Shown: piece after piece, positions 1 through 38,937 of the stretch
Position numbering within the stretch: position 1 is the stretch's first letter
Layout of the letters: each line of letters begins with the position of its first letter
NCBI GenBank assembly: GCA_963665115.1
Contig: OY762007.1
Span: 1,472,001-1,536,000 of the forward strand
Length of the DNA: 64,000 nucleotides
From: an uncultured Rivularia sp.
GTDB lineage: Bacteria; Cyanobacteriota; Cyanobacteriia; Cyanobacteriales; Nostocaceae
Direction of reading: 5' to 3'
Notes under the pieces: model-generated
Database searches by the model: none
What the model was told of the DNA's origin: nothing
The model's input: the letters and a program-made list of their open reading frames with translations, nothing else
Position numbers and translations under genes: made by a program

Positions 1-200
1 CCATAATATTGAGTCATATAAGGTGACTTTGTTTCACCTTTAGCAGAGTCATCATAAATCATGTAACCATCCACTCCTTCACCATTGAAAGTGAACTTGT
101 ACATAGCAGCTTGAGCGGGAGTCGTGTTAAATGTTCCTTGAACTAGTAACACTGCAAAACTAATCGCAACCACAATAAATAATCTTTTCCAAAAAGCCAT
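1..200 (-). CDS. Secreted hypothetical protein, 5' part only (runs off the window)
   Basis: Manual translation from ATG at 200: MAFWKRLFIVVAISFAVLLVQGTFNTTPAQA-AMYKFTFNGEG... It has a Sec-type signal peptide with an AQA site and an AGGAGA RBS upstream. The frame is open to base 1. Confidence 0.75.
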   Translation of the reverse strand, partial: MAFWKRLFIVVAISFAVLLVQGTFNTTPAQAAMYKFTFNGEGVDGYMIYDDSAKGETKSPYMTQYY

Positions 201-504: not shown

Positions 505-1257
505 CTACTTACTTGTGCCTTCTAATTTTTTTAGATTGAGAATTTTTTCACTAGGCGACAATTCTTTTAGAGGTAAAATGTTATATTCCTCTTTAATATC
601 TGCAAGAGGTCGATTCCACATCTCTTCCCAACGAATAGCCCAAAGAGGACGAGCAGCACGTCCGCGCTGCCAGCCTTCAAATAGCGCTTCTAAGGCTAAA
701 TCTAGTTGCTTTGTTTCCACGGTTGCAAAGTGCAGAACCAACGCAGTCATCAAAAACGTTTGGTAAACTGTTGCTCCTTGACCGTGATAAAAACCTTGAA
801 GCGCTAATTCTCCCAGCGTATCGGCATTGTAACCAGTAACAACGTGCCAGATATCATGAGTTTGCATCTTACGCAGTTTGATATAGCTTGCGTCATCGGG
901 GGATTCAAAAGCGGTATAGTCATAAGCGGGAATACCGTTTGCAATCATGTGATGATAATAAACATAGCCCAAACTACCCGGAGGACATTGATTTTTGAGG
1001 TCTTCTAATCTATACTCAGGTCCAAAATAGCGTTGCTCAATCATCTCTGCCATTCCGGGACTAAGACGCAATTGCTCAACGTATTCGCAAGTTTGTATTT
1101 CTTCCAAATGTCTTGTAACTTCTTCGAGCTTGAAATAATCTTGCAGTTCTGAATCGTTAGGATTTGCTGCTATAGATAAAAAAGCTCTGATAAAATTGGG
1201 GTCGTTGAGTAGAGATTGCGAATTGGGTAGGATACTAATTTTCTCTGTTATCTGCAT
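505..1257 (-). CDS. Coq4-family protein
   Basis: HDIWHVVTGY...GE (HDxxH-x11-E metal motif), PPGSLGYVY and the C-terminal WEEMWNRPL are typical of Coq4. Confidence 0.85.
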   Translation of the reverse strand: MQITEKISILPNSQSLLNDPNFIRAFLSIAANPNDSELQDYFKLEEVTRHLEEIQTCEYVEQLRLSPGMAEMIEQRYFGPEYRLEDLKNQCPPGSLGYVYYHHMIANGIPAYDYTAFESPDDASYIKLRKMQTHDIWHVVTGYNADTLGELALQGFYHGQGATVYQTFLMTALVLHFATVETKQLDLALEALFEGWQRGRAARPLWAIRWEEMWNRPLADIKEEYNILPLKELSPSEKILNLKKLEGTSK

Positions 1258-1364
1258 AAAAACTCCTTTGAAGATACGAGTAGATGTGAATTGGAATTAA
1301 CGGTGACTGGGAAAAATTAGAAATTACTTTTGTACCCAGTCACCAAAAATATCTAAAAATATGC

Positions 1365-2492
1365 TTAATGAGTCAGAAGAATCCTTTCCTGGGGTTGGGA
1401 AAAGCTCACTCCAGGAGCAGGGGCTGGTCCTAATGCAACATCACCCCAGCGCATTACGCTTGCACCGGCATTTGATGAGGAACCCATTGTATAAACAAGA
1501 ACTAAATCATTTTCTCGAATCTTACGGGATTCAGCGGCGTGATAAAGGTTCGCAATCGGAAATGTCGGCCCAATATTTGCATACAGGGGATTGAGGTTAA
1601 TTGTGCGGTCTGGGTCTATTCCTAATGCACGAGTACAAACTCTGGAATACCAAGCGCTGGGAGTGTTGAAGGCAAAAAAGTCAATTTCATCTAAGCTGAC
1701 ATCAGCAGCCGCAATCGCGCCATGACAGCACAACCGAATAAACTTGACTGTGGTTTCGTTAAACATTTTGCTTGCCCCTTTACCACCACGGATGAACATT
1801 TTAATGTTGCCTTGCTCGTCAGTGGTGAATTCGTTGTAAAAGGCACCGCAGGTAGCAGCGGTATTCGCAATTTTACTACCCAACACTCCCTGGTTTTCTT
1901 TTAAACTACCAACTACAAACGCTCCCGCACCATCACCCGATAAAAATGCCAGGGTATCATTTTCGTCAGTATAGCGAGAGTAAGTAGTTGAAACCACTAC
2001 CAAAACATTGCGGTATTCTCCCGTTCTGACCAGGGAGCAAGCAGTCTGGAGCGAAACTAACGCCGAAGTGCAGGTTGATTCTATATTCCATGCCGCATTT
2101 TGCAACCCTAATTTACCCGCGAGGAAAGCAGCATTCCCTGGTGTAACTTGTTCGGGAAACAGGGAAGTAACCAACATCAAATCAACATCTTCGGGTGCCA
2201 GCTTTGCCGCTTCGAGTGCATCCATCGCCGCGCGGTATTCTAGAGAAAGCGAGGTTTCATCCTCAGCTACCACCCGCCTTTCTACCGTACCGCGAAACGG
2301 GTCTGACATATAGGGTGCTAGTTCTTGCGACCAGATATCTGTGGAGCCGTCGGGTGCAAATAATCTTGCTAAAGTCTTCTTTTCGGCTACAGCCACCATC
2401 TCCGGATAATTCTCTCGATAATAATCGTTAGTGCGGATGATGCTGGGAAAATTAACGGCGATCGCCCGAATGCCAACTGGTTGTAAGTTCAT
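1365..2492 (-). CDS. 3-oxoacyl-ACP synthase III-like protein, putative furanolide synthase (CybF-like)
   Basis: KAS III motifs STCTSAL (catalytic Cys), GDGAGA and ANIG. The usual HQAN His position reads FNTP. Operon context supports the call. Confidence 0.8.
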   Translation of the reverse strand: MNLQPVGIRAIAVNFPSIIRTNDYYRENYPEMVAVAEKKTLARLFAPDGSTDIWSQELAPYMSDPFRGTVERRVVAEDETSLSLEYRAAMDALEAAKLAPEDVDLMLVTSLFPEQVTPGNAAFLAGKLGLQNAAWNIESTCTSALVSLQTACSLVRTGEYRNVLVVVSTTYSRYTDENDTLAFLSGDGAGAFVVGSLKENQGVLGSKIANTAATCGAFYNEFTTDEQGNIKMFIRGGKGASKMFNETTVKFIRLCCHGAIAAADVSLDEIDFFAFNTPSAWYSRVCTRALGIDPDRTINLNPLYANIGPTFPIANLYHAAESRKIRENDLVLVYTMGSSSNAGASVMRWGDVALGPAPAPGVSFSQPQERILLTH

Positions 2493-2581
2493 GATTTTTC
2501 TCCTTTAAATTTAATAGCTATCGGTAAATGAGGTATTGATCCAAACGGTTTAAGTCCCCCACCATGCGCCGCGATAACTGT

Positions 2582-4345
2582 TCACTGTTCGCTGTTAGCT
2601 GAAATAGCTCCTTGTTGGATGAGGCTGCGAATTCTAGCACCAATGGGAGCGGGTTGTGTGGGGTCTAAATTAATGTCAATTACAAAGGGAACTGTGGCAG
2701 CAAGGGCTGTTATTAAGGCTGCTTCGAGTTCCGACTCTCGGTCAACGCGGATACCGTCTGCACCCATTCCCCGCGCTAACTGAACAAAATTTGTACTCGG
2801 TATTTCAGTATCCACCCCTGTAAATCCTTGTAAATTCATACCTTGGGCGCACATATTGTAGCGTCCGTCATTAAGTACAATCCACACGGCAGGAATTTTG
2901 AATCGAACTGCGGTACTGACTTCGCTATTCATCAACATTGCACCGTCTCCCACAATGGCAACAGCTTTACCATTCCTTCCCCAAGCCGCTCCGACTACTC
3001 CGGTAACGGCATGACCCATTGCTCCCACACCAGTACTAATTCGGTAGCGCCCCGGTTGTTTAAAGCACAGTCGATTAGTTGCCCAAGCAAAGGAATTTCC
3101 GGCTTCAGCCAAGATTACAGCATCGCTACCATCAACGATAACCTGTTGAATTGTATCCATTAAAACTTCCGGTCTGACTAAACCATTATGGGAAGAAATC
3201 TGTTTTTGCTCTGGATGGGGCAGTGTTGGTAAATTTCCAGGACGTAGGGGAAAGTGAGATAATAGAGATTTCAGAAAAGCTTTGACTTCCGATTGAATTG
3301 AGAAAATTGATGCTTCCGGGTAAGCAACTCCAGGTACTTCCGGGTCAATATCTACATGGATAAACCCACCAGCAGGTACCATTTGCGGATTCCAGAACGA
3401 AGTTGGTTCTCCCAAACGGGTTCCCAAAACCAGGATGCGATGGGGTTGCTGCTCCTGCATATATGCGAGAACAGAACTATGACCGCTAAACCCAGTCACA
3501 CCGACAAATTGCGGATGATTTTCGGGAAAAACGCCTTTAGCACGGGGAGAACACATCACCGCAGCCCCAGTACGCTCCGCTAATTCGCGAATTTCCGCAG
3601 CTGCACCTCTAGCACCGAAACCAACCCAAATTGCAAAGGGTTCCTGAGAAAGTAAGCGCACGCATTCAACAGTTGTATGTTCGCTAGGGGCTAATTCCCC
3701 ACAAGTAAACCCAGTTTGGTACTTTACCGCGCATGGTGTAGTTTGAATTGGAGTCGGAATACTGATATGGGCAACAAAACCCCCCGGTTGGGATAAACCT
3801 CGTGCCAATCGTCGGGAAATTTCCGGGATTTCATCTCCATTCTCCACAATCGTAGCGTAGTTAAATAATGCTCCAGGGGTAAACAAACCCGAAATCGGCA
3901 TAGTATGAGCGCTTGTTTCTTGACAAGCCCAACGTCCGCGATTTCCCGTTGCAGTTGCCGCAGAGATTAGAATTACCTTGGCACCTTCTCCCCTAGCAGC
4001 CAACAATCCAGTCAGTACATTAGTGATACCCGGACCCGTAGTAACGAATACTACCACCGGACGATTGCTAGCAAAGTAAGCTTCACAAGCTGCAAAAGCT
4101 GCTCCCGACTCGTGGCGAAAATGGAGAACTTGAATATTGCTGCGGTTGAGCGCTGCCCAAAGTGGTCCAATACCACCTCCAGAAACACCGAATGCAGATT
4201 CCACCCCCATATCTTCCAACATTTTGACCGCAGTTTCTCCAACTGTCAGTTGAGTTGGTGTTAATTGGGTGATTTGTTCATTTCCAGGTGGGGAGAAAAT
4301 TGAAGATGTAGATGATTTTGTAATTTGATACGATTTGGTATTCAT
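2582..4345 (-). CDS. ScyA-related ThDP-dependent acyloin synthase (CybE-like)
   Basis: RHESGAAF catalytic Glu, TTGPG, and the ThDP-binding GDGAMLMN...LNDG motif. Confidence 0.88.
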   Translation of the reverse strand: MNTKSYQITKSSTSSIFSPPGNEQITQLTPTQLTVGETAVKMLEDMGVESAFGVSGGGIGPLWAALNRSNIQVLHFRHESGAAFAACEAYFASNRPVVVFVTTGPGITNVLTGLLAARGEGAKVILISAATATGNRGRWACQETSAHTMPISGLFTPGALFNYATIVENGDEIPEISRRLARGLSQPGGFVAHISIPTPIQTTPCAVKYQTGFTCGELAPSEHTTVECVRLLSQEPFAIWVGFGARGAAAEIRELAERTGAAVMCSPRAKGVFPENHPQFVGVTGFSGHSSVLAYMQEQQPHRILVLGTRLGEPTSFWNPQMVPAGGFIHVDIDPEVPGVAYPEASIFSIQSEVKAFLKSLLSHFPLRPGNLPTLPHPEQKQISSHNGLVRPEVLMDTIQQVIVDGSDAVILAEAGNSFAWATNRLCFKQPGRYRISTGVGAMGHAVTGVVGAAWGRNGKAVAIVGDGAMLMNSEVSTAVRFKIPAVWIVLNDGRYNMCAQGMNLQGFTGVDTEIPSTNFVQLARGMGADGIRVDRESELEAALITALAATVPFVIDINLDPTQPAPIGARIRSLIQQGAISANSEQ

Positions 4346-4357
4346 GTTTTTAATTAG

Positions 4358-4404
4358 TAATTGGGGATTGGGGATTGGTAATTGGTAATTGGTAATTGGT
4401 AATT
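4358..4404. repeat. STRR-type heptamer tandem repeat (ATTGGGG/ATTGGTA)n
   Basis: attggggattggggattggtaattggtaattggtaattggtaattg. Confidence 0.85.
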
Positions 4405-4487
4405 GTTACTCACTTCTGGCTTTAAGCCGACCTATTTTTCTCTATCTCTCCAACTCTTTCCTCTGCGGTTTTTTTAATCAGTAATCA

Positions 4488-6038
4488 TCAGAGCGGAAGC
4501 AGTAATTGGGAATTGGTAATCGCACATTCTTGCTGGCGCAAAAATCTTTTCATCACCTTCCCCGTCGGATTTTTTGGTAGTGAATTAACAAATTGAATTT
4601 TTTGGGGAATTTTATATGCTGCCATTCTTTGATTGCAAAACTGAATTATTTCTAATTCGCTAATTTGACTGTTGGCTTTGCAGACAATATTGGCTTTAAC
4701 TATTTCCCCTTTAATCGCATCGGGAACTCCATAAATTGCAACTTCTGCAACTGCATGATGTTGGTAAATTACATTTTCTACTTCTGTAGGATATACTTTA
4801 AACCCAGAAACATTAACCATATCTTTTAAACGGTCGGCAATGTAGAAAAAGCCTTCTTCATCCATACGACCAATATCACCACTATGCAGCCAGCCATTTT
4901 TAATTACTTCTTGAGTTTCTTCAAGACGCTTCCAATAACCGAGCATGACATTGGGACCTTTAATAATTATCTCCCCCAATTCTCCCGGTGATACCTGATT
5001 TCCATCACTATCAACAACTTGCATTTGGACATTTTCGATAGGCATTCCAATGGAACCAAACTTATATTTTAAATTGTGGTTATAGCTAGCGCAGGGTGAT
5101 GCTTCTGTTAAACCGTATCCTTCATGAATCACTTTTTTATACTTTTCTTGCCACATACGAGCAATTTCTACGGGCATGGGAGCGGCAGCGCTAAAATAAT
5201 AACGCAAGCTGCTAAAGTTATATTTAGAAGTGTCTTGATTCAGCAATCGGATAAATACAGTTGGTACTCCAAAAAACATTGTTACCTGATATTTATCAAT
5301 GCTTTCTAAAGCTACTTCTAATTCAAATCTTCTTTGTAAAATGATAGTCGCACAAACATTTAATCCAGCGTTGAAAATTGCATTTTGACCGAAGCAATGA
5401 AACAAAGGTACATATAGCAGCAATCTATCATGTTGATTCATCCCAGAACAGCGATTGTGTGCGGAGATATTAGAAATAATATTACCGTGGGAAAGAGTTG
5501 CACCTTTAGGAAAACCCGTAGTTCCAGAAGTATAGACAATACTAGCAGGAGAATCCCATTCCATCTCTACAGCGCGAGCTATGGGAGAAGCATTTTCAAT
5601 CAAAGCTGTAAATTCGATATCTTTATCTTTCTCTACCGTACCCTCAGCAATCAAAATATGCTGTAAATGAGGTAAATCGCTATCAACTAAGTGCAAACGT
5701 CCCGATGCTGTGGTCACAATTGCTTTAGCAGTACAATCATTCAGAACATAACTAACCTCAGCCGACTTAAACATTACATTCAGGGAAACTGCAATCGCGC
5801 CAATTTTCAAAATTCCTAAATAGGCAATAGCAAACTCCGGTATATTTGGCAAGAACAAAGCAACGCGATCGCCTTTTTCAATCCCCAATCCCCGCAATGC
5901 ATTAGCTGTACGATTAACTAATTGGTCAAAATGCTTGTAGGTATAAAACTTATCTTCGTAAATTATTGCGGTCTTGTTGGGAAATAGCCGATGACCGCGT
6001 TCGACATGATGTGCGATATTCATAATTTTAAAGGTCAA
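4488..6038 (-). CDS. Acyl/aryl-CoA ligase, putative 4-coumarate-CoA ligase (CybC-like)
   Basis: AMP-binding motifs YTSGTTGFPKG, EGYGLTE, SGDIG and PKNPTGK. The likely start is ATG at 6023. Confidence 0.9.
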   Translation of the reverse strand: MTFKIMNIAHHVERGHRLFPNKTAIIYEDKFYTYKHFDQLVNRTANALRGLGIEKGDRVALFLPNIPEFAIAYLGILKIGAIAVSLNVMFKSAEVSYVLNDCTAKAIVTTASGRLHLVDSDLPHLQHILIAEGTVEKDKDIEFTALIENASPIARAVEMEWDSPASIVYTSGTTGFPKGATLSHGNIISNISAHNRCSGMNQHDRLLLYVPLFHCFGQNAIFNAGLNVCATIILQRRFELEVALESIDKYQVTMFFGVPTVFIRLLNQDTSKYNFSSLRYYFSAAAPMPVEIARMWQEKYKKVIHEGYGLTEASPCASYNHNLKYKFGSIGMPIENVQMQVVDSDGNQVSPGELGEIIIKGPNVMLGYWKRLEETQEVIKNGWLHSGDIGRMDEEGFFYIADRLKDMVNVSGFKVYPTEVENVIYQHHAVAEVAIYGVPDAIKGEIVKANIVCKANSQISELEIIQFCNQRMAAYKIPQKIQFVNSLPKNPTGKVMKRFLRQQECAITNSQLLLPL

Positions 6039-6048
6039 AGGTTGAAGG

Positions 6049-7765
6049 TTAAAGGTTAACTGATTTCAAAGCGGATAAAACTTCTGAGATTGCAGTAACA
6101 ATTTGTCCGCCACGAGTAACATCGTCAGCAATTTTACTAATATGAGAATCTAAACCTTGCTCGTTGTCATCCCATATATAAGGACGTTCTTTACTTGGTG
6201 GTCTGCCAACAACATTCCGAACTGCCATGTATAAATCTTGAGTAGCGGGTGATAAAGTTGCACGAGCATCATAATGTCCCGCAACTGCATAGGTACGCAA
6301 ATCCACCGATTGCACCCCAAACATCAAAGCTAAAGCGATATATTGTTGAAAAATCTCTACACTGGTTCGCGCTAAATTAGCTGAAGCAAACCCCTGACTA
6401 TTAATATTCTGGTTGTATTGTTCTGCATGGGTAGGAAATCTGTCAGCAATAGAATTTCCATAGAAGGTTAACAAAGGCATAATCGAATTACCAGTAATTT
6501 GCAATCCCTTTAAACCCATATTCACAGTACGCTGTTGATTTCCAACTAGGGACGGAGACAATCCATTATTAAACTCCGGAGCCACTAAATAAGCGATTTG
6601 TACATCTAAATGTTTGGCTAACATTCCAATGTGATAGCGCAATCTATCCATTCCCACACCAATGTACTGTCCCAGAAAATTGCCCCCATGATAACTAGCT
6701 TGATTTTCTACATCAATTAACGGGTTATCGGTGACAGAATTTATTTCTATCTCCACCTGTTTGGCAATATCTTCGATACCGTCTACAATCGGTCCCATAT
6801 ACTGTGCCAGACAGCGTAATGAATAACGATCCTGAATGGGATTTTTACCTCGATAATTGTGGGAACCATCTAACTCATCGCGAATTAACCCAGAAACCTG
6901 CCAACAATTCCAGCATTTGGGAAGCAGCCCAAACTTGCCCGGAATGGGGTTTTAGTTTATGAATATATTCGTGAAAAGATTGATTAGTACCTTCCAAACC
7001 TTGAATTGTTAAAGCATGGGTTCCGACGCTCAAAGCTAATAAAATTCTCGTATCTTGGACGCAATTAGCCGCAATTCCAGTCATTACAGAAGTCCCATTC
7101 ATCATTGCTAATCCTTCCTTGGGAAGTAATTGCAACGGCTCTAAACCCAGCTTTTGCAGTGCTGTTGGTGCATCCATTTCTTCACCGTCAAAATCTACGA
7201 TGTAGCTGGAATTTAAACCAATTAATGCTCCAGAAATATACGCTAAAGGTGTTAAATCCCCACTAGCACCAATCGAACCAAATTCGGGTACATGAGGAGT
7301 AACACCAGCATTTAAGAATATCAGCATCCGCTTGATGAGTTCCAGACGAATACCCGATGCACCAGCAACGTGAGAGTTAGCACGTAACAGCATCGCAGCC
7401 CGAACATCAGCTAGAGGTAACTTGTTTCCCGCACCCACCTTGTGATAGCACATCAAATTATTTTGTAGTAAAGTCGCAGATTCCGGCGAAATTACCACAT
7501 TTGCCATCCCACCAAAACCAGTAGTCACCCCATAAATTGGCTCCCCCGATTCAACAGCATCGCGGATAAAATCGCAGGATGCTTGAACATTGGCTAATTT
7601 TTCCAGATTTTCAGTTAAACGTACCCGTACTCCATAACGCGCTACACTTACCACTTCCTCAATCGTAAGTTGGCGATCGCCAACAATTACCGCAGCATCC
7701 GAATTATTTAAAAAAGTAAACTGTTTTGAGGAGACATTGTTTTGAGTTAAGCGAGTTGCATCCAT
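6049..7765 (-). CDS. Aromatic amino acid (Tyr/Phe) ammonia-lyase (CybB-like), split by a +1 frameshift near 6894-6896
   Basis: GASGDL MIO motif and YGVTTGFG. The two ORFs are collinear halves of an Anabaena-type PAL. Removing one base restores ...LLAGSGLIRDELDGSHNYRGKNPIQDRYSLRC... Confidence 0.92.
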
Positions 7766-7798
7766 GTTGTTGACCTAATATTTTTTACAAGAGAGGTT

Positions 7799-8914
7799 TT
7801 AGCGTAAACAAAGACCAGATACTTCTGAATCTATAGATAGTTGTTTGGAAGTAATGCAGGGCTGATGCTGTTCCCAGCGACCGAAAAATTGACTCAAATG
7901 ACTTATTTCCCGCATTAATTGGGCAAAACTAGCAAAATCAAGTGACTGAGGACCATCTGAAAGCGCTTTTTGAGGATTGGGGTGAACTTCCACCATCAAA
8001 GAATCGCAACCAGCCGCAATAGCAGCCTTTGCCATTGGACTAACCAGTTCAGATTTACCAGTAGCGTGACTGGGATCAACGACAATTGGCAGGTGAGTTA
8101 GATTGCGTAAAACAGGAATTGCAGATATATCTAAAGTATTGCGAGTATACTTCCTGTCGCAAGTTCTAATTCCCCGTTCGCAGAGAATCACATTGGGATT
8201 TCCCGCTGCCAAGATATATTCTGCTGACATCAGCCATTCCTCAATCGTGGCTGATAAACCTCGCTTCAGCAACACCGGCTTATTAGTTGCACCGATTTTT
8301 TTCAAAAGTGAAAAATTTTGCATATTGCGGGCACCAACTTGGAGTATATCTGCAACCGATGCGATCGCCGATAATTCAGAACCATCCATCACTTCAGTAA
8401 TAATTCCCAAACCAGAAACTGACCTAGCAGTTGCCAACCATTCCAAAGCAGTCTCTCCATGTCCTTGGAAAGCATAAGGAGAAGTTCTGGGTTTGTAAGC
8501 ACCTCCCCGGAGAAACTTTGCACCTGCGGCTTTAACTTGCAGCGCAGTTTCCACAATCATCTCTTCGCTTTCCACAGAGCAGGGACCAGCAATTACAACT
8601 AGAGGATGATTTTGACCGAAAGTAACATTCCCAGAAGGAGTCGAAACTTTAATATTACTGGGTTCACCATAGCGAAACTCCAAACTAGCTCGTTTGAAAG
8701 GCTTATTTATCCGCAGCACCTGCTCAATATAAGGACTTAAATTTTGCACCTGTTGTAAATCGATTTCCGCCGTATCACCAACCAAACCAATAGCTACTTT
8801 ATTTTTCCCTCTAGATACTTCTGGTAAAATATTCCAGCGTCGAAGTTCCGTACATAATAATTTAATTTCTTCTTGAGGACAACCAGATTTAACGACGATA
8901 ATCATTGTTTTCAC
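7799..8914 (-). CDS. aroF: DAHP synthase (type I-beta, with N-terminal regulatory domain)
   Basis: IAGPCSVES, GGAYKPRTSPYAFQG, GARNMQN, DPSH and ALSDGPQSL motifs. Confidence 0.95.
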   Translation of the reverse strand: MKTMIIVVKSGCPQEEIKLLCTELRRWNILPEVSRGKNKVAIGLVGDTAEIDLQQVQNLSPYIEQVLRINKPFKRASLEFRYGEPSNIKVSTPSGNVTFGQNHPLVVIAGPCSVESEEMIVETALQVKAAGAKFLRGGAYKPRTSPYAFQGHGETALEWLATARSVSGLGIITEVMDGSELSAIASVADILQVGARNMQNFSLLKKIGATNKPVLLKRGLSATIEEWLMSAEYILAAGNPNVILCERGIRTCDRKYTRNTLDISAIPVLRNLTHLPIVVDPSHATGKSELVSPMAKAAIAAGCDSLMVEVHPNPQKALSDGPQSLDFASFAQLMREISHLSQFFGRWEQHQPCITSKQLSIDSEVSGLCLR

Positions 8915-16524: not shown

Positions 16525-18111
16525 CTATTCAAGAAGGACAAAATTTGAACTAAAGATAAAATCGCGTTCAAAGTTGACGTTAGTAGAGTCTTGCACTATA
16601 GCAATTGCATCATTTCCAAAGAAAATACCAGTATCTTCGGCAGAGCTACCAAGCCAGTTACCAGTTGCTAGAGAATATTGACTAAAATTACCTTGAACCT
16701 GGATGTAATCATACTGCCAGTTAAAGTCAGTAATTACCGCATATTCATCTCCTTGATAGAAGACATTTGAAGATTCTCCCAGAACGAAGGTATCATTTCC
16801 AGTTTCTCCCGTTAAGATATCATATCCAGAACCGCCAACTATAGTATCATTACCACTTCCACCAATCAGCGTGTCACTACCCGCATTATCCACAAGGTAA
16901 TCGTTTCCGGAACCACCATAGAGATAGTTATTAGCTGTATTGCCAATGAGGATATCATTTCCTGCACCCCCCACAGCATTTTCGATAGTGACTCCATAAG
17001 CGATCGCCAAATTATTACTGGCTCTGTTAGAACTTCCATCATCTTGAGGACCAATGTTACTAAAAGTTCCAGAATTGAGATTAATCGTAACAGAAATCCC
17101 TTGATTGCTTGCATTAATAGTATCAATACCACCACCATCCCAAATTGTCTCAACGAAGGCTTGGTTCGCATCCCAATCATATGTAGTATTACCTGCGCGG
17201 GTATTATCGTTAACCCCGTAAAGATGCTGTATTGCAGCAATATCGTAGAGCATAGGTGTCTGAGGATTGGCAACACTACCTGAATGGTCGTTGTATGACA
17301 TTACCGTGTATTGATTGTTATCTAAATCAGAGTATAAATAGGGACCCTCAGCACCACCCCCACCTGCATTATAATTACCTGGATGTTTCAATCCTAATGC
17401 ATGACCGATTTCGTGGATTAAGGTATGAAATCCATAGGAACCATTAGTTTGAGTTAGATTTGAATTATGAATATTATTTAACCAGACATCACCTCCGACT
17501 GAATGATTACTTGGAAGGTAAGCATGAGCGCTACCATGTTCCATATTCGCCGTTCCAAACCGGATAGTTCCCCCTGCCCCAGCATCTGGTACCTCAACAA
17601 AGTTTAGTCCTGAAACTTCGCTGTAAAGTTGCAAAGCTTGTCTTGCTGCTGCTTGTTGAGTTTCATTAAAAGCAATGAATTGATTCCGCTCCTCAGCATT
17701 ACCAGAATAGTAATTTGGAACTCTAGTCATAAAGCTATAGTTTATAGTTTGACTAGTCCAATAGTTTGTTCCTATTAAAGCCTCAATTCCACTGGTATAA
17801 GATGCAGCAGCTTGAGGAATTAAATCTGTATTTGTTTCATCATTGGACATATGGTGGCTGCAGTTGCATAAATGAGTCGTGGTGAGATTATGGTCAACAG
17901 CATTGTGGTACGTAGTAGAATTTGGTAATAAATCATCGAAGGAAGCTGGTTGATTTAGAGTTTCTTGGAATATAGTTGAAGAAAAAGCTTCTTCCGTAAT
18001 TCCCCTGTAACTGAAATAAACTTGATTAGCTAAAGTTTCAAAAAGGGGATTAGATTCATCGGTGACGAAATCGGAATTAGTTTGAGAAATAATTGTTGAA
18101 GTATTTGTCAT
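16525..18111 (-). CDS. M10 (serralysin-like) zinc metalloprotease with RTX repeats
   Basis: HEIGHALGLKH zinc motif, TVMSY Met-turn, GGxGxD Ca-binding repeats and CNC in the pro-region. Confidence 0.93.
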   Translation of the reverse strand: MTNTSTIISQTNSDFVTDESNPLFETLANQVYFSYRGITEEAFSSTIFQETLNQPASFDDLLPNSTTYHNAVDHNLTTTHLCNCSHHMSNDETNTDLIPQAAASYTSGIEALIGTNYWTSQTINYSFMTRVPNYYSGNAEERNQFIAFNETQQAAARQALQLYSEVSGLNFVEVPDAGAGGTIRFGTANMEHGSAHAYLPSNHSVGGDVWLNNIHNSNLTQTNGSYGFHTLIHEIGHALGLKHPGNYNAGGGGAEGPYLYSDLDNNQYTVMSYNDHSGSVANPQTPMLYDIAAIQHLYGVNDNTRAGNTTYDWDANQAFVETIWDGGGIDTINASNQGISVTINLNSGTFSNIGPQDDGSSNRASNNLAIAYGVTIENAVGGAGNDILIGNTANNYLYGGSGNDYLVDNAGSDTLIGGSGNDTIVGGSGYDILTGETGNDTFVLGESSNVFYQGDEYAVITDFNWQYDYIQVQGNFSQYSLATGNWLGSSAEDTGIFFGNDAIAIVQDSTNVNFERDFIFSSNFVLLE

Positions 18112-37723: not shown

Positions 37724-37870
37724 CCGTTACATAAAACTTACCCAAAACTACCTATAACTAGACAAATCTAGACATATATGATTTTAGTGTTTACTTCCTG
37801 CTTCAAGCTGGGGTAGTCGGCTACTTCCCATCCACAGGCTGAAACTGTCTAACTGACAGCCTTAGATAAA
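37724..37870 (-). ncRNA. Putative TnpB omega-RNA scaffold (element right end)
   Basis: GCCTGTGGATGGGAAGTAGCCGACTACCCCAGCTTGAAGCAGGAAG follows the tnpB stop. The position matches known TnpB omega-RNAs, but the boundaries are inferred. Confidence 0.55.
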
Positions 37871-38937
37871 TTGATTGCAGCGTTTAAATCGCGGTCAATC
37901 GTAAAATTACAGTTCTTACAATCAAACACTCTTTCCAGAAGAGAGAGTACTTCCTTTTTATGACCACAATTGGAACAAGTTTTAGATGATGGAAACCATC
38001 TATCAACCACAACTAGTTTGGAGCCGTACAATTTACATTTGTATTCAAGTTGTCTTCTAACTTCATAAAATCCCATATCAGAAATCGATAAGGCTAGTTT
38101 ATGATTTTTCATCATACCCGATACATTTAAATCTTCTATCACTATCGTTCCGTGATTCTTGGCTAATAATGATGTCAATTTATGGATAGAATATGCTCTT
38201 ATATTGGAAATTCTTCTATGAAGTCTAGCTATTTTTAGTTGAGTTTTTCTCCAATTTTTAGAACCAATCACTTTATTGCGATTTAACCACTGCAATCGAG
38301 ATAATTTAGTTTTATTTTTACGATAGGCTTTCGCTCCTTCTATAACTTCACCTGTCGATAAGGTTGCTAGAGCCTTAACTCCTAAATCAACTCCTACAAC
38401 AGTTGTATTATTATTTTTTTGAATTTGGGTATCAATTTTAAAACTAATAAACCACCTATCTGCTTGTCGGGATATCGTTACAGATTTTATTTTATCTAGC
38501 TGGGGTAATTTCTCATATGTTTTTAATTTACCTATTCTTGGAACTTGAATTATAAAACTATCTATAGTCTTACAAGTTCCTTCCAAAGTAAATGAATCGT
38601 TTTTACCTTTCTTTTTAAACCTGGGTTGACCACTAACTGTTTTGAAGCATCTTTTCCAAGCAGTAGATAAATCTCTTAATGCTGATTGTGGTGCAGACTT
38701 TGAACACTCATAGTACCAAGGGTTTTCGGGTTTAACCAAAGCCACTAAGTATTTATGTAAATCAATCGCACTTGGAAATTTTATTTTAGAATCAGGATTA
38801 ATAAAATTGTTTTCTAATATTGCGCGGGTTAATGCTAATCCCCAATTCCAAGCATGTCTAGAAACTCCACAATGTTTGAGTAAAACAGTTTTTTGATTGT
38901 TATTTAATTTTAATTCTGTTTTAAATCCGAGTAACAT
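37849..38937 (-). CDS. tnpB: RNA-guided endonuclease TnpB
   Basis: RuvC residues VGVDLG, VIEDL and DRDLNAA, zinc finger CSNC...CKNC, and PRFKKK. Confidence 0.95.
   Translation of the reverse strand: MLLGFKTELKLNNNQKTVLLKHCGVSRHAWNWGLALTRAILENNFINPDSKIKFPSAIDLHKYLVALVKPENPWYYECSKSAPQSALRDLSTAWKRCFKTVSGQPRFKKKGKNDSFTLEGTCKTIDSFIIQVPRIGKLKTYEKLPQLDKIKSVTISRQADRWFISFKIDTQIQKNNNTTVVGVDLGVKALATLSTGEVIEGAKAYRKNKTKLSRLQWLNRNKVIGSKNWRKTQLKIARLHRRISNIRAYSIHKLTSLLAKNHGTIVIEDLNVSGMMKNHKLALSISDMGFYEVRRQLEYKCKLYGSKLVVVDRWFPSSKTCSNCGHKKEVLSLLERVFDCKNCNFTIDRDLNAAINLSKAVS

Follow-up and report, generated by a model that had tools for sequence, protein, structure and literature searches.

A predicted furanolide gene cluster in Rivularia, distinct from cyb, mac and ncl, with Coq4-like and predicted-exported barrel proteins as candidate accessory functions

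A run of six minus-strand genes at the left end of a 64,000-nucleotide stretch of DNA from an uncultured Rivularia sp. (GenBank assembly GCA_963665115.1, contig OY762007.1) raises the question of whether this cyanobacterium encodes a furanolide pathway, and, if so, what its product and its accessory proteins might be. The stretch, referred to here as the window, corresponds to G000:C1:1472001-1536000, where G000 is the source genome assembly. An initial annotation had described an operon of DAHP synthase, MIO lyase, CoA ligase, ThDP enzyme, KAS-III-like enzyme and Coq4, and the families of all six genes were confirmed by Pfam. We favor, with a little more belief than doubt, a reading of the gene content in which the four furanolide enzymes would make what is likely a 4-hydroxybenzyl butenolide, an ATP-binding cassette (ABC) pair would export it, and small barrel proteins would bind it outside the membrane. 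The genes are arranged as follows.

Window 7799-8914, minus strand: 3-deoxy-D-arabino-heptulosonate 7-phosphate (DAHP) synthase (CybA/MacA-like), precursor supply; Pfam match, 71% identical to the cyb copy and 70% to the mac copy.
Window 6049-7765, minus strand: 4-methylideneimidazole-5-one (MIO) ammonia-lyase of predicted tyrosine type (CybB-like), in two open reading frames (ORFs), 6875-7765 and 6049-6798; Pfam aromatic lyase match in two pieces.
Window 4488-6038, minus strand: aryl-acrylate CoA ligase (CybC-like); Pfam AMP-binding match.
Window 2582-4345, minus strand: thiamine diphosphate (ThDP)-dependent acyloin synthase (CybE/ScyA-related); Pfam match, 66%, 62% and 64% identical to the cyb, mac and ncl copies.
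Window 1365-2492, minus strand: ketoacyl synthase III (KAS-III)-fold furanolide synthase (CybF-like), hereafter KAS; 64%, 68% and 65% identical to CybF, MacF and the ncl copy.
Window 505-1257, minus strand: Coq4-like metal-binding protein; Pfam Coq4 match, HDxxH(x11)E at residues 134-150.
Window 1-200 (part; whole gene G000:C1:1471595-1472200), minus strand: barrel protein 1, 201 aa, with a signal-peptide-like N-terminus and no C-terminal anchor.
G000:C1:1470902-1471498, minus strand, left of the window: barrel protein 2, of 198 aa and also with a signal-peptide-like start, 33% identical to barrel protein 1.
G000:C1:1469473-1470663, minus strand, left of the window: TyrA-type chorismate mutase/prephenate dehydrogenase, 396 aa.
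G000:C1:1465665-1469362, minus strand, left of the window: ABC exporter gene pair, the second gene split by one extra base at G000:C1:1466347.
G000:C1:1461834-1465593, plus strand, convergent: MacAB-type exporter of uncertain cluster membership; homologues lie inside the operon in loci L007, L017 and L114.

A scan with the KAS protein gave 145 related stretches, and the best 80 of these were used as loci; 81 loci were compared. The reference loci were cyb (L014, KAS DAZ89846.1), mac (L089, KAS GAX38427.1) and ncl (L092, lyase identical to PDB 2NYF); the literature on nostoclide describes NclD as a structurally characterized phenylalanine ammonia-lyase (PAL), and the gene content of L089 agrees with the description of mac in PMC13288894. 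Within the best 80 of the 145 stretches, the nearest relatives were Rivularia and Calothrix records with KAS identities of 93-99%. The six-gene order was found again in dozens of genomes, and a chance arrangement was therefore dismissed. Furanolide clusters are defined by an ammonia-lyase, a CoA ligase, a ThDP acyloin synthase and a KAS-III-fold synthase occurring together (PMC13288894), and all four signature genes are together here. The comparison with cyb and ncl proposed in the initial annotation was run, with mac added; gene order was the same and the core enzymes were 62-70% identical (ligase 67-68%, ThDP enzyme 62-66%, KAS 64-68%).

The initial annotation had staked its reading on the KAS-III-like protein falling within the CybF family, and in a quick tree of 90 rows that family, including the window protein, separated from FabH at a Shimodaira-Hasegawa-like approximate likelihood ratio test (SH-aLRT) value of 100. 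The window KAS is only 27% identical to the FabH of G000. Cys141, Asn276 and Asn306 are common to the window KAS, CybF, MacF and the ncl copy, with FabH having His at the middle site; a catalytic role for these sites in CybF would be carried over by analogy with FabH. In the same tree the window KAS stood in its own 38-row branch (SH-aLRT 100), which held none of cyb, mac and ncl, and the ThDP enzyme gave the same picture, in its own branch (97) of a 30-row tree; its NF035927 score was 994.7, just below the cut-off of 1000. The gene content argues that this is a true CybBCEF-type furanolide pathway, yet, with the window in its own KAS and ThDP branches and none of the three proven clusters in either, one distinct from cyb, mac and ncl. 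The core assignment of the initial annotation, CybA/B/C/E/F-like enzymes joining coumaroyl-CoA and an acyloin into a butenolide, is thus backed by identity, gene order, tree and lyase motif. The DAHP synthase gene was not found in the orthologous loci L088 and L093 and is therefore likely dispensable. One cluster in the tree, from a contig labeled Acetobacteraceae (L030), was nested among Nostoc sequences; the label is probably a binning error.

The three proven clusters differ from the window in their accessory genes. The cyb locus shares DAHP synthase, a lyase with the Y/H motif, CoA ligase, ThDP enzyme and KAS-III-fold synthase in the same order (64-75% identical), but its halogenase, O-methyltransferases, Rieske oxygenase, NmrA-like protein and tyrosinase are all missing near the window's cluster, and L014 in turn has no barrel, Coq4-like, TyrA or ABC genes and places its KAS and ThDP enzymes in other branches. 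The mac cluster of Nodularia sp. NIES-3585 has the same five-gene run, comes closest among the proven clusters in its KAS (68%), and likewise has additional genes of the shikimate pathway and no halogenase. It differs in an F/L (cinnamate-type) lyase where the window has Y/H, in a chorismate mutase, a tyrosinase, a different exported protein, a reductase and PcyA, and in lacking the barrels, Coq4-like, TyrA and ABC genes. In Nostoc punctiforme, ncl has lyase, ligase, ThDP enzyme and KAS in the same order (64-72% identical), whereas its lyase is F/L, it adjoins fatty-acid/tetronate-type genes, and L092 contains neither barrels nor a Coq4-like gene. In lichen Nostoc, 'nostoclide-like' clusters were noted in silico in strains 210A and 232 (PMC5987646), and loci L040 and L032, which carry those strain names and presumably are the clusters meant, belong to the window's branch and have barrels. 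They differ by an additional P450, a multicopper oxidase and tailed barrels. Neither a product for these clusters nor the term PEP-CTERM was found in the searched text of PMC5987646.

The lyase motif bears on the product. The window lyase has the ASG (MIO) motif, a Y/H specificity pair and an N/Q carboxylate pair, while Anabaena and Nostoc PALs have F/L; Y/H is the signature of tyrosine ammonia-lyase (TAL) and F/L that of PAL (PMC9321829). The same article describes TALrpc (UniParc UPI00029F3BB0), which assayed as a TAL with slight activity on Phe. UPI00029F3BB0 is exactly the lyase of the orthologous locus L088, and the two halves of the window lyase are 95% and 98% identical to it. In all three characterized clusters the motif fits the known alpha arm, with Y/H in cyb and, in mac and ncl, the F/L type that yields an unhydroxylated benzyl arm. 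The window lyase is thus, by sequence, a tyrosine ammonia-lyase, and on the strength of the motif, the near-identity to TALrpc and the three-for-three match of motif to arm, the alpha arm of the product is likely 4-hydroxybenzyl. The window's branch also appears as the native context of TALrpc, a TAL already in biotechnological use. We considered whether the window might represent the native maculalactone cluster, as Kyrtuthrix maculans belongs to Rivulariaceae like the nearest relatives, and rejected this candidate because the maculalactone compounds are of tribenzyl/diphenyl type and would need an F/L lyase.

Following the core cyb chemistry described in PMC13288894, PMC12395478 and PMC8777810, the lyase would convert tyrosine to 4-coumarate, the CoA ligase would activate this to coumaroyl-CoA, and the ThDP enzyme would join two 2-oxo acids into an acyloin acid. 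The KAS-III-fold enzyme would then O-acylate the acyloin acid and close the ring by a Morita-Baylis-Hillman-type step and a hydride shift. By pushing flux toward tyrosine and 4-hydroxyphenylpyruvate, DAHP synthase and TyrA would make 4-hydroxybenzylidene the likely gamma arm. Whether the beta arm would be aromatic or branched alkyl cannot be called, and the compound could be either new or one already described, such as precyanobacterin. The ABC pair would export it, and in the periplasm or sheath this hydrophobic product might be carried or taken up by the barrels. Nostoclides, where strains were tested, had a signaling effect but no algicidal one (PMC9324945).

The initial annotation had noted that no halogenase or methyltransferase was visible, and this held on a wider search: none was present among ORFs of at least 90 aa in the 20 kb left of the window, and CybD- and CybI-like (halogenase) queries found nothing in the whole of G000 at E 1e-10. 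The description 'lightly tailored' is plausible on this account, but it overlooks the furanolide-specific Coq4-like protein. This protein matched Alr8543 (PDB 6E12) at E 5e-25 and shares with the COQ4 family its fold and the HDxxH(x11)E metal motif. It differs in belonging to a distinct subfamily, at least 64% identical within and at most 38% to the rest. In 389 genomes of the organism's family, matches of at least 64% occurred in 12, every one about 2 kb or less downstream of a CybF-type gene, inside the window's branch and outside it, and the next class reached at most 38%. This confinement to the neighborhood of CybF-type genes suggests a tailoring enzyme, for which the Coq4-like protein is the only candidate in the window's cluster; in sister clusters its place is taken, or shared, by an O-methyltransferase, P450s or a halogenase. 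The activity described for yeast and human COQ4 is the oxidative decarboxylation of a prenylated 4-hydroxybenzoate; the reaction depends on oxygen, and the di-metal site of COQ4 adjoins a hydrophobic tunnel (PMC10680789). More tentatively, the window's protein might oxidize the lactone or a phenol ring. With it, the COQ4 fold, whose activity resisted in vitro assay in that article, may gain a small-molecule substrate.

The gene following the operon had been described as an unrelated secreted protein. Far from being unrelated, it is, together with its paralogue, the accessory gene met most constantly in the branch, and the two are among the genes that made the term 'minimal' inapt, as inspection left of the window showed two predicted-exported proteins, TyrA and the ABC pair on the same strand. 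The barrel family comprised 73 copies in 34 of the 81 loci, located 3' of the KAS gene at 1 to 5 per locus. A profile was built from 67 of the 73 copies, all from the window's clade, and its match counts ignore kinship among genomes. Strong matches (best E about 1e-66 or better) were found in 40 of the 389 family genomes, and a KAS of at least 83% identity in exactly the same 40; a further 45 genomes had remoter CybF-like genes and no strong barrel match. In 39 of the 40 the barrel and KAS genes adjoined on one contig, and in the remaining genome they were split between contigs. There was no strong match away from a furanolide cluster in any of the 389 genomes, and among 401 genomes sampled evenly from the order, G000 was the only one with a strong barrel match or a KAS at 83% or above.

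No family in Pfam or NCBIfam covered the window's barrels. The two structural models were confident and nearly all beta (predicted local distance difference test scores of 85 and 95), and their strand order reads as an eight-stranded up-and-down beta-barrel, a predicted fold that suits small-molecule binding. Fold searches were topped by 5jk2 (Z 7.5, root-mean-square deviation (rmsd) 3.0, 95 aligned) and 4gdz (Z 7.3, rmsd 3.5, 96 aligned); neither of the two wide fold searches had dirigent proteins or allene oxide cyclase among its 50 listed matches, and Foldseek gave no match at E 0.001 or better with either model. All leads of an Atlas search were below 0.9, the top one being a PEP-CTERM cluster at 0.86. 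A PEP-CTERM-like hydrophobic tail was present on the barrels of 24 of the 34 loci, and in the other 10, the window included, the proteins end where the tail would begin; the window's two barrels have no PEP motif, membrane helix or basic tail. TIGR02595 scored above its cut-off in one of two tailed barrel relatives tested. The ABC pair occurred in 9 of the 10 tail-less loci versus none of the 24 tailed loci, a comparison in which some loci are incomplete and the evolutionary events few.

A decayed copy of the cluster in genome G488 (L086:7919-14045) consists of DAHP synthase and KAS fragments, a partial barrel gene and a kept ABC pair. Predicted-exported proteins occur in other furanolide clusters as well (L011:11751-15914, L014:16704-18152, L089:12112-14565 and L032:13006-15401), among them tyrosinases with signal-peptide-like starts (tailed in L011), a multicopper oxidase whose leader is twin-arginine-like, and two further tailed families, of which one bears a weak resemblance to the barrels. 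An equation of the barrels with 'orf1/orf2' of mac was rejected; those appear to be a DUF7005 protein and a different exported protein.

A bolder explanation, which we put forward as tentative and on balance unlikely, is that the barrels are late-stage catalysts or steering proteins like ScyE, and that an exported phenolic furanolide is dimerized, cyclized or cross-linked outside the membrane into a sheath-bound UV-A pigment or larger scaffold. The scytonemin locus resembles the window's in combining a ScyA-related ThDP enzyme, aromatic precursor genes and exported PEP-CTERM-type proteins, although its ring chemistry is different. A scytonemin-type region of G000, at G000:C1 ~6.516-6.542 Mb, encodes a second TyrA and a ThDP enzyme of ScyA-like type, 60% identical to that of the window; its scy gene labels are presumed by us from gene order. 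The ThDP clade of the window adjoins this ScyA-like copy, weakly supported (SH-aLRT 90, long branch). The known locus pairs its ThDP enzyme with three PEP-CTERM proteins, one of which, ScyE, is required if the monomer is to dimerize periplasmically (PMC12188702). The absorption of furanolides lies at 330-360 nm (PMC12395478). The barrel copy number of 1 to 5 would fit such a role, as would the finding that 20 of the 34 barrel loci also encode another tailed protein and a multicopper oxidase whose leader is twin-arginine-like. Among the middling fold matches (Z 6.0-6.8) were pericyclase barrel domains (7dmo, 6kbc and 7e5t), but the fold matches were no better than those to unrelated barrels. 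Moreover, the window's own subgroup has neither the oxidase nor the anchor tail, the barrels retain few invariant polar residues once remote relatives are included, and the barrel profile found nothing at E <1 among the ORFs of the G000 scytonemin region. Extended to the whole widespread branch, the same analogy would have the barrels, in many Nostoc together with the oxidase, couple or cyclize phenolic furanolides outside the cell into an undescribed pigment or scaffold, with the Coq4-like protein a recruited tailoring enzyme, and this is equally doubtful.

A number of points weigh against the reading we prefer, from the arms of the proposed butenolide to its binding by the barrels. The exact match of barrel and KAS in 40 of 40 genomes perhaps reflects one gain that was then kept, since the profile came from the same clade and kin are not independent. 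Weak full-length barrel matches (E 1e-16 to 1e-20) occurred in 14 genomes, and none of the three inspected was in a furanolide cluster. Wider relatives (44 matches among 1.84 billion; 9 read) are generic exported, mostly PEP-CTERM-like tailed proteins, and neither model had a fold match at Z 8 or above, the matches being generic barrels that point to no function. The Coq4-like gene is optional, as only 10 of the 40 clade genomes have it, and in vitro activity of purified COQ4 could not be demonstrated (PMC10680789). The ThDP enzyme groups with none of CybE, MacE and the ncl copy, which makes the arms hard to call, and its selectivity residue could not be read from the alignment or from BbmA (8X3X), the G484 site being Gly in the window, cyb, mac and ncl enzymes; two of the three product arms are for these reasons guesses. 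No product for the window's branch was found in the literature searched, which did not take in the genome survey of the original cyb paper. Finally, macBCEF alone gave the same products in E. coli as the whole mac cluster (PMC13288894).

The last of these results also speaks for a simpler explanation, in our judgment quite unlikely, in which the four core enzymes alone matter and make a plain, possibly known furanolide of precyanobacterin, enhygrolide or hydroxy-maculalactone type, with the barrel and Coq4-like genes as passengers. CybE and CybF are very promiscuous, and precyanobacterin is built from exactly coumarate, 4-hydroxyphenylpyruvate and ketoisovalerate (PMC12395478); PEP-CTERM proteins are abundant, with 35 in N. 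punctiforme (PMC12188702). Passengers, however, would not be expected to show the confinement of strong barrel matches to the cluster in 389 genomes, nor the keeping and duplication of barrels across several genus labels. The decayed cluster of G488 retains a partial barrel gene, and the Coq4 subfamily adjoins CybF-type genes beyond the window's branch, which argue in the same direction.

The favored pathway also requires an intact lyase, and the initial annotation had held that the lyase would need repair. One extra base at window 6894 splits the gene into two ORFs, and that the lyase and the second ABC gene are truly broken and the cluster dead in this strain is very improbable. Four sequencing runs of one study (X1, X2, X3 and X5) bear on this. 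Contigs of X2, X3 and X5 are without the base at 6894, and over L003:1500-16000 (14.5 kb) no other-letter difference was seen in X2 and X3, although both runs are missing the extra bases of the lyase and of the second ABC gene. Against this, the contigs of X1, which may be the source of the assembly, carry both at a depth of ~210-230 with no alternative contig listed at 1%, and this counts against a working pathway. As an error test, 20 evenly spaced 20-kb stretches of genome G706 (L094-L113; 224 ORFs) were compared with G000. At the DNA level 30 of 140 G000 orthologues had a net frameshift and stops (some rows being alignment noise or wrong starts), and at the protein level 21 of 148 were split across frames (one row being an overlapping second match). 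The split genes were spread over the whole assembly, mostly by one added base in a short run, and 4 of 30 lay in the GGTTTCT context of the lyase. An orthologue of dnaB (89-91% identical) was among them, but G000 holds other dnaB-like copies (53-57% in their best pieces), and the split rate was measured on one genome pair and would include any natural splits, two points that lend a real break some support. The remaining cluster genes are whole. Since three of the four runs lack the base and similar splits affect 14-21% of orthologues genome-wide, the break is very probably a sequencing or assembly error and the gene intact in living cells, and one-base breaks in the G000 assembly are not to be taken for pseudogenes.

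That the branch enzymes make something other than a furanolide, such as an acyloin ester or another ring, is hardly credible. In its favor, longer CybF-like proteins from loci with a chorismate-binding enzyme, mostly nonribosomal peptide synthetase (NRPS) genes and no ThDP partner make up 18 of the 90 tree rows, and the literature searched gives no product for any member of the window's branch, but here the four signature genes stand in cyb order at the identity seen to proven clusters.

The longer CybF-like proteins, of about 500 aa, form a branch drawn from loci L053, L055, L058-L060, L062-L066, L068, L069, L071, L073, L074, L076, L077 and L081, where an adenylating enzyme also occurs beside the chorismate-binding enzyme and the mostly present NRPS-like genes; by its gene content, the CybF fold likely serves a second, different pathway there. 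ThDP and CybF-like pairs without lyase or ligase were found in L047-L049, L061, L070, L075, L078, L079 and L082, two of them on plasmids and often adjoining a short-chain dehydrogenase and large WD40-repeat proteins.

Around the cluster, the gene upstream of the operon is a divergent two-partner-secretion gene, and window 9235-62852 holds a long two-partner-secretion (filamentous haemagglutinin-like) gene array with ShlB-type transporter, CHAT-TPR, CHASE2, DUF928 and DUF1822 genes. A serralysin-like M10 protease lies at window 16525-18111 and an IS605-type TnpB at 37849-38937. Short intergenic repeats at window ~4360-4408, 445-489 and 6028-6059 have many other copies elsewhere (very high summed contig depth, many loose ends). 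Promoter and terminator scans were both at chance level (41 vs 47.5 and 12 vs 12.5). A type III CRISPR-Cas operon with Cas10/Cmr2-like and RAMP genes is located 13-20 kb left of the window (L001:415-7108).

The core chemistry is known already, and the cluster alone is a modest find. Its branch, however, occurs in roughly one in ten genomes of the family and has two accessory families found only with furanolide genes. In the furanolide literature searched, PEP-CTERM did not occur together with a furanolide term. Should the barrels indeed complete or guide the molecule once it has left the cell, the branch would provide a second extracellular pathway of the scytonemin kind, and this might be the reason that furanolide expression in heterologous hosts gets no further than simple lactones.

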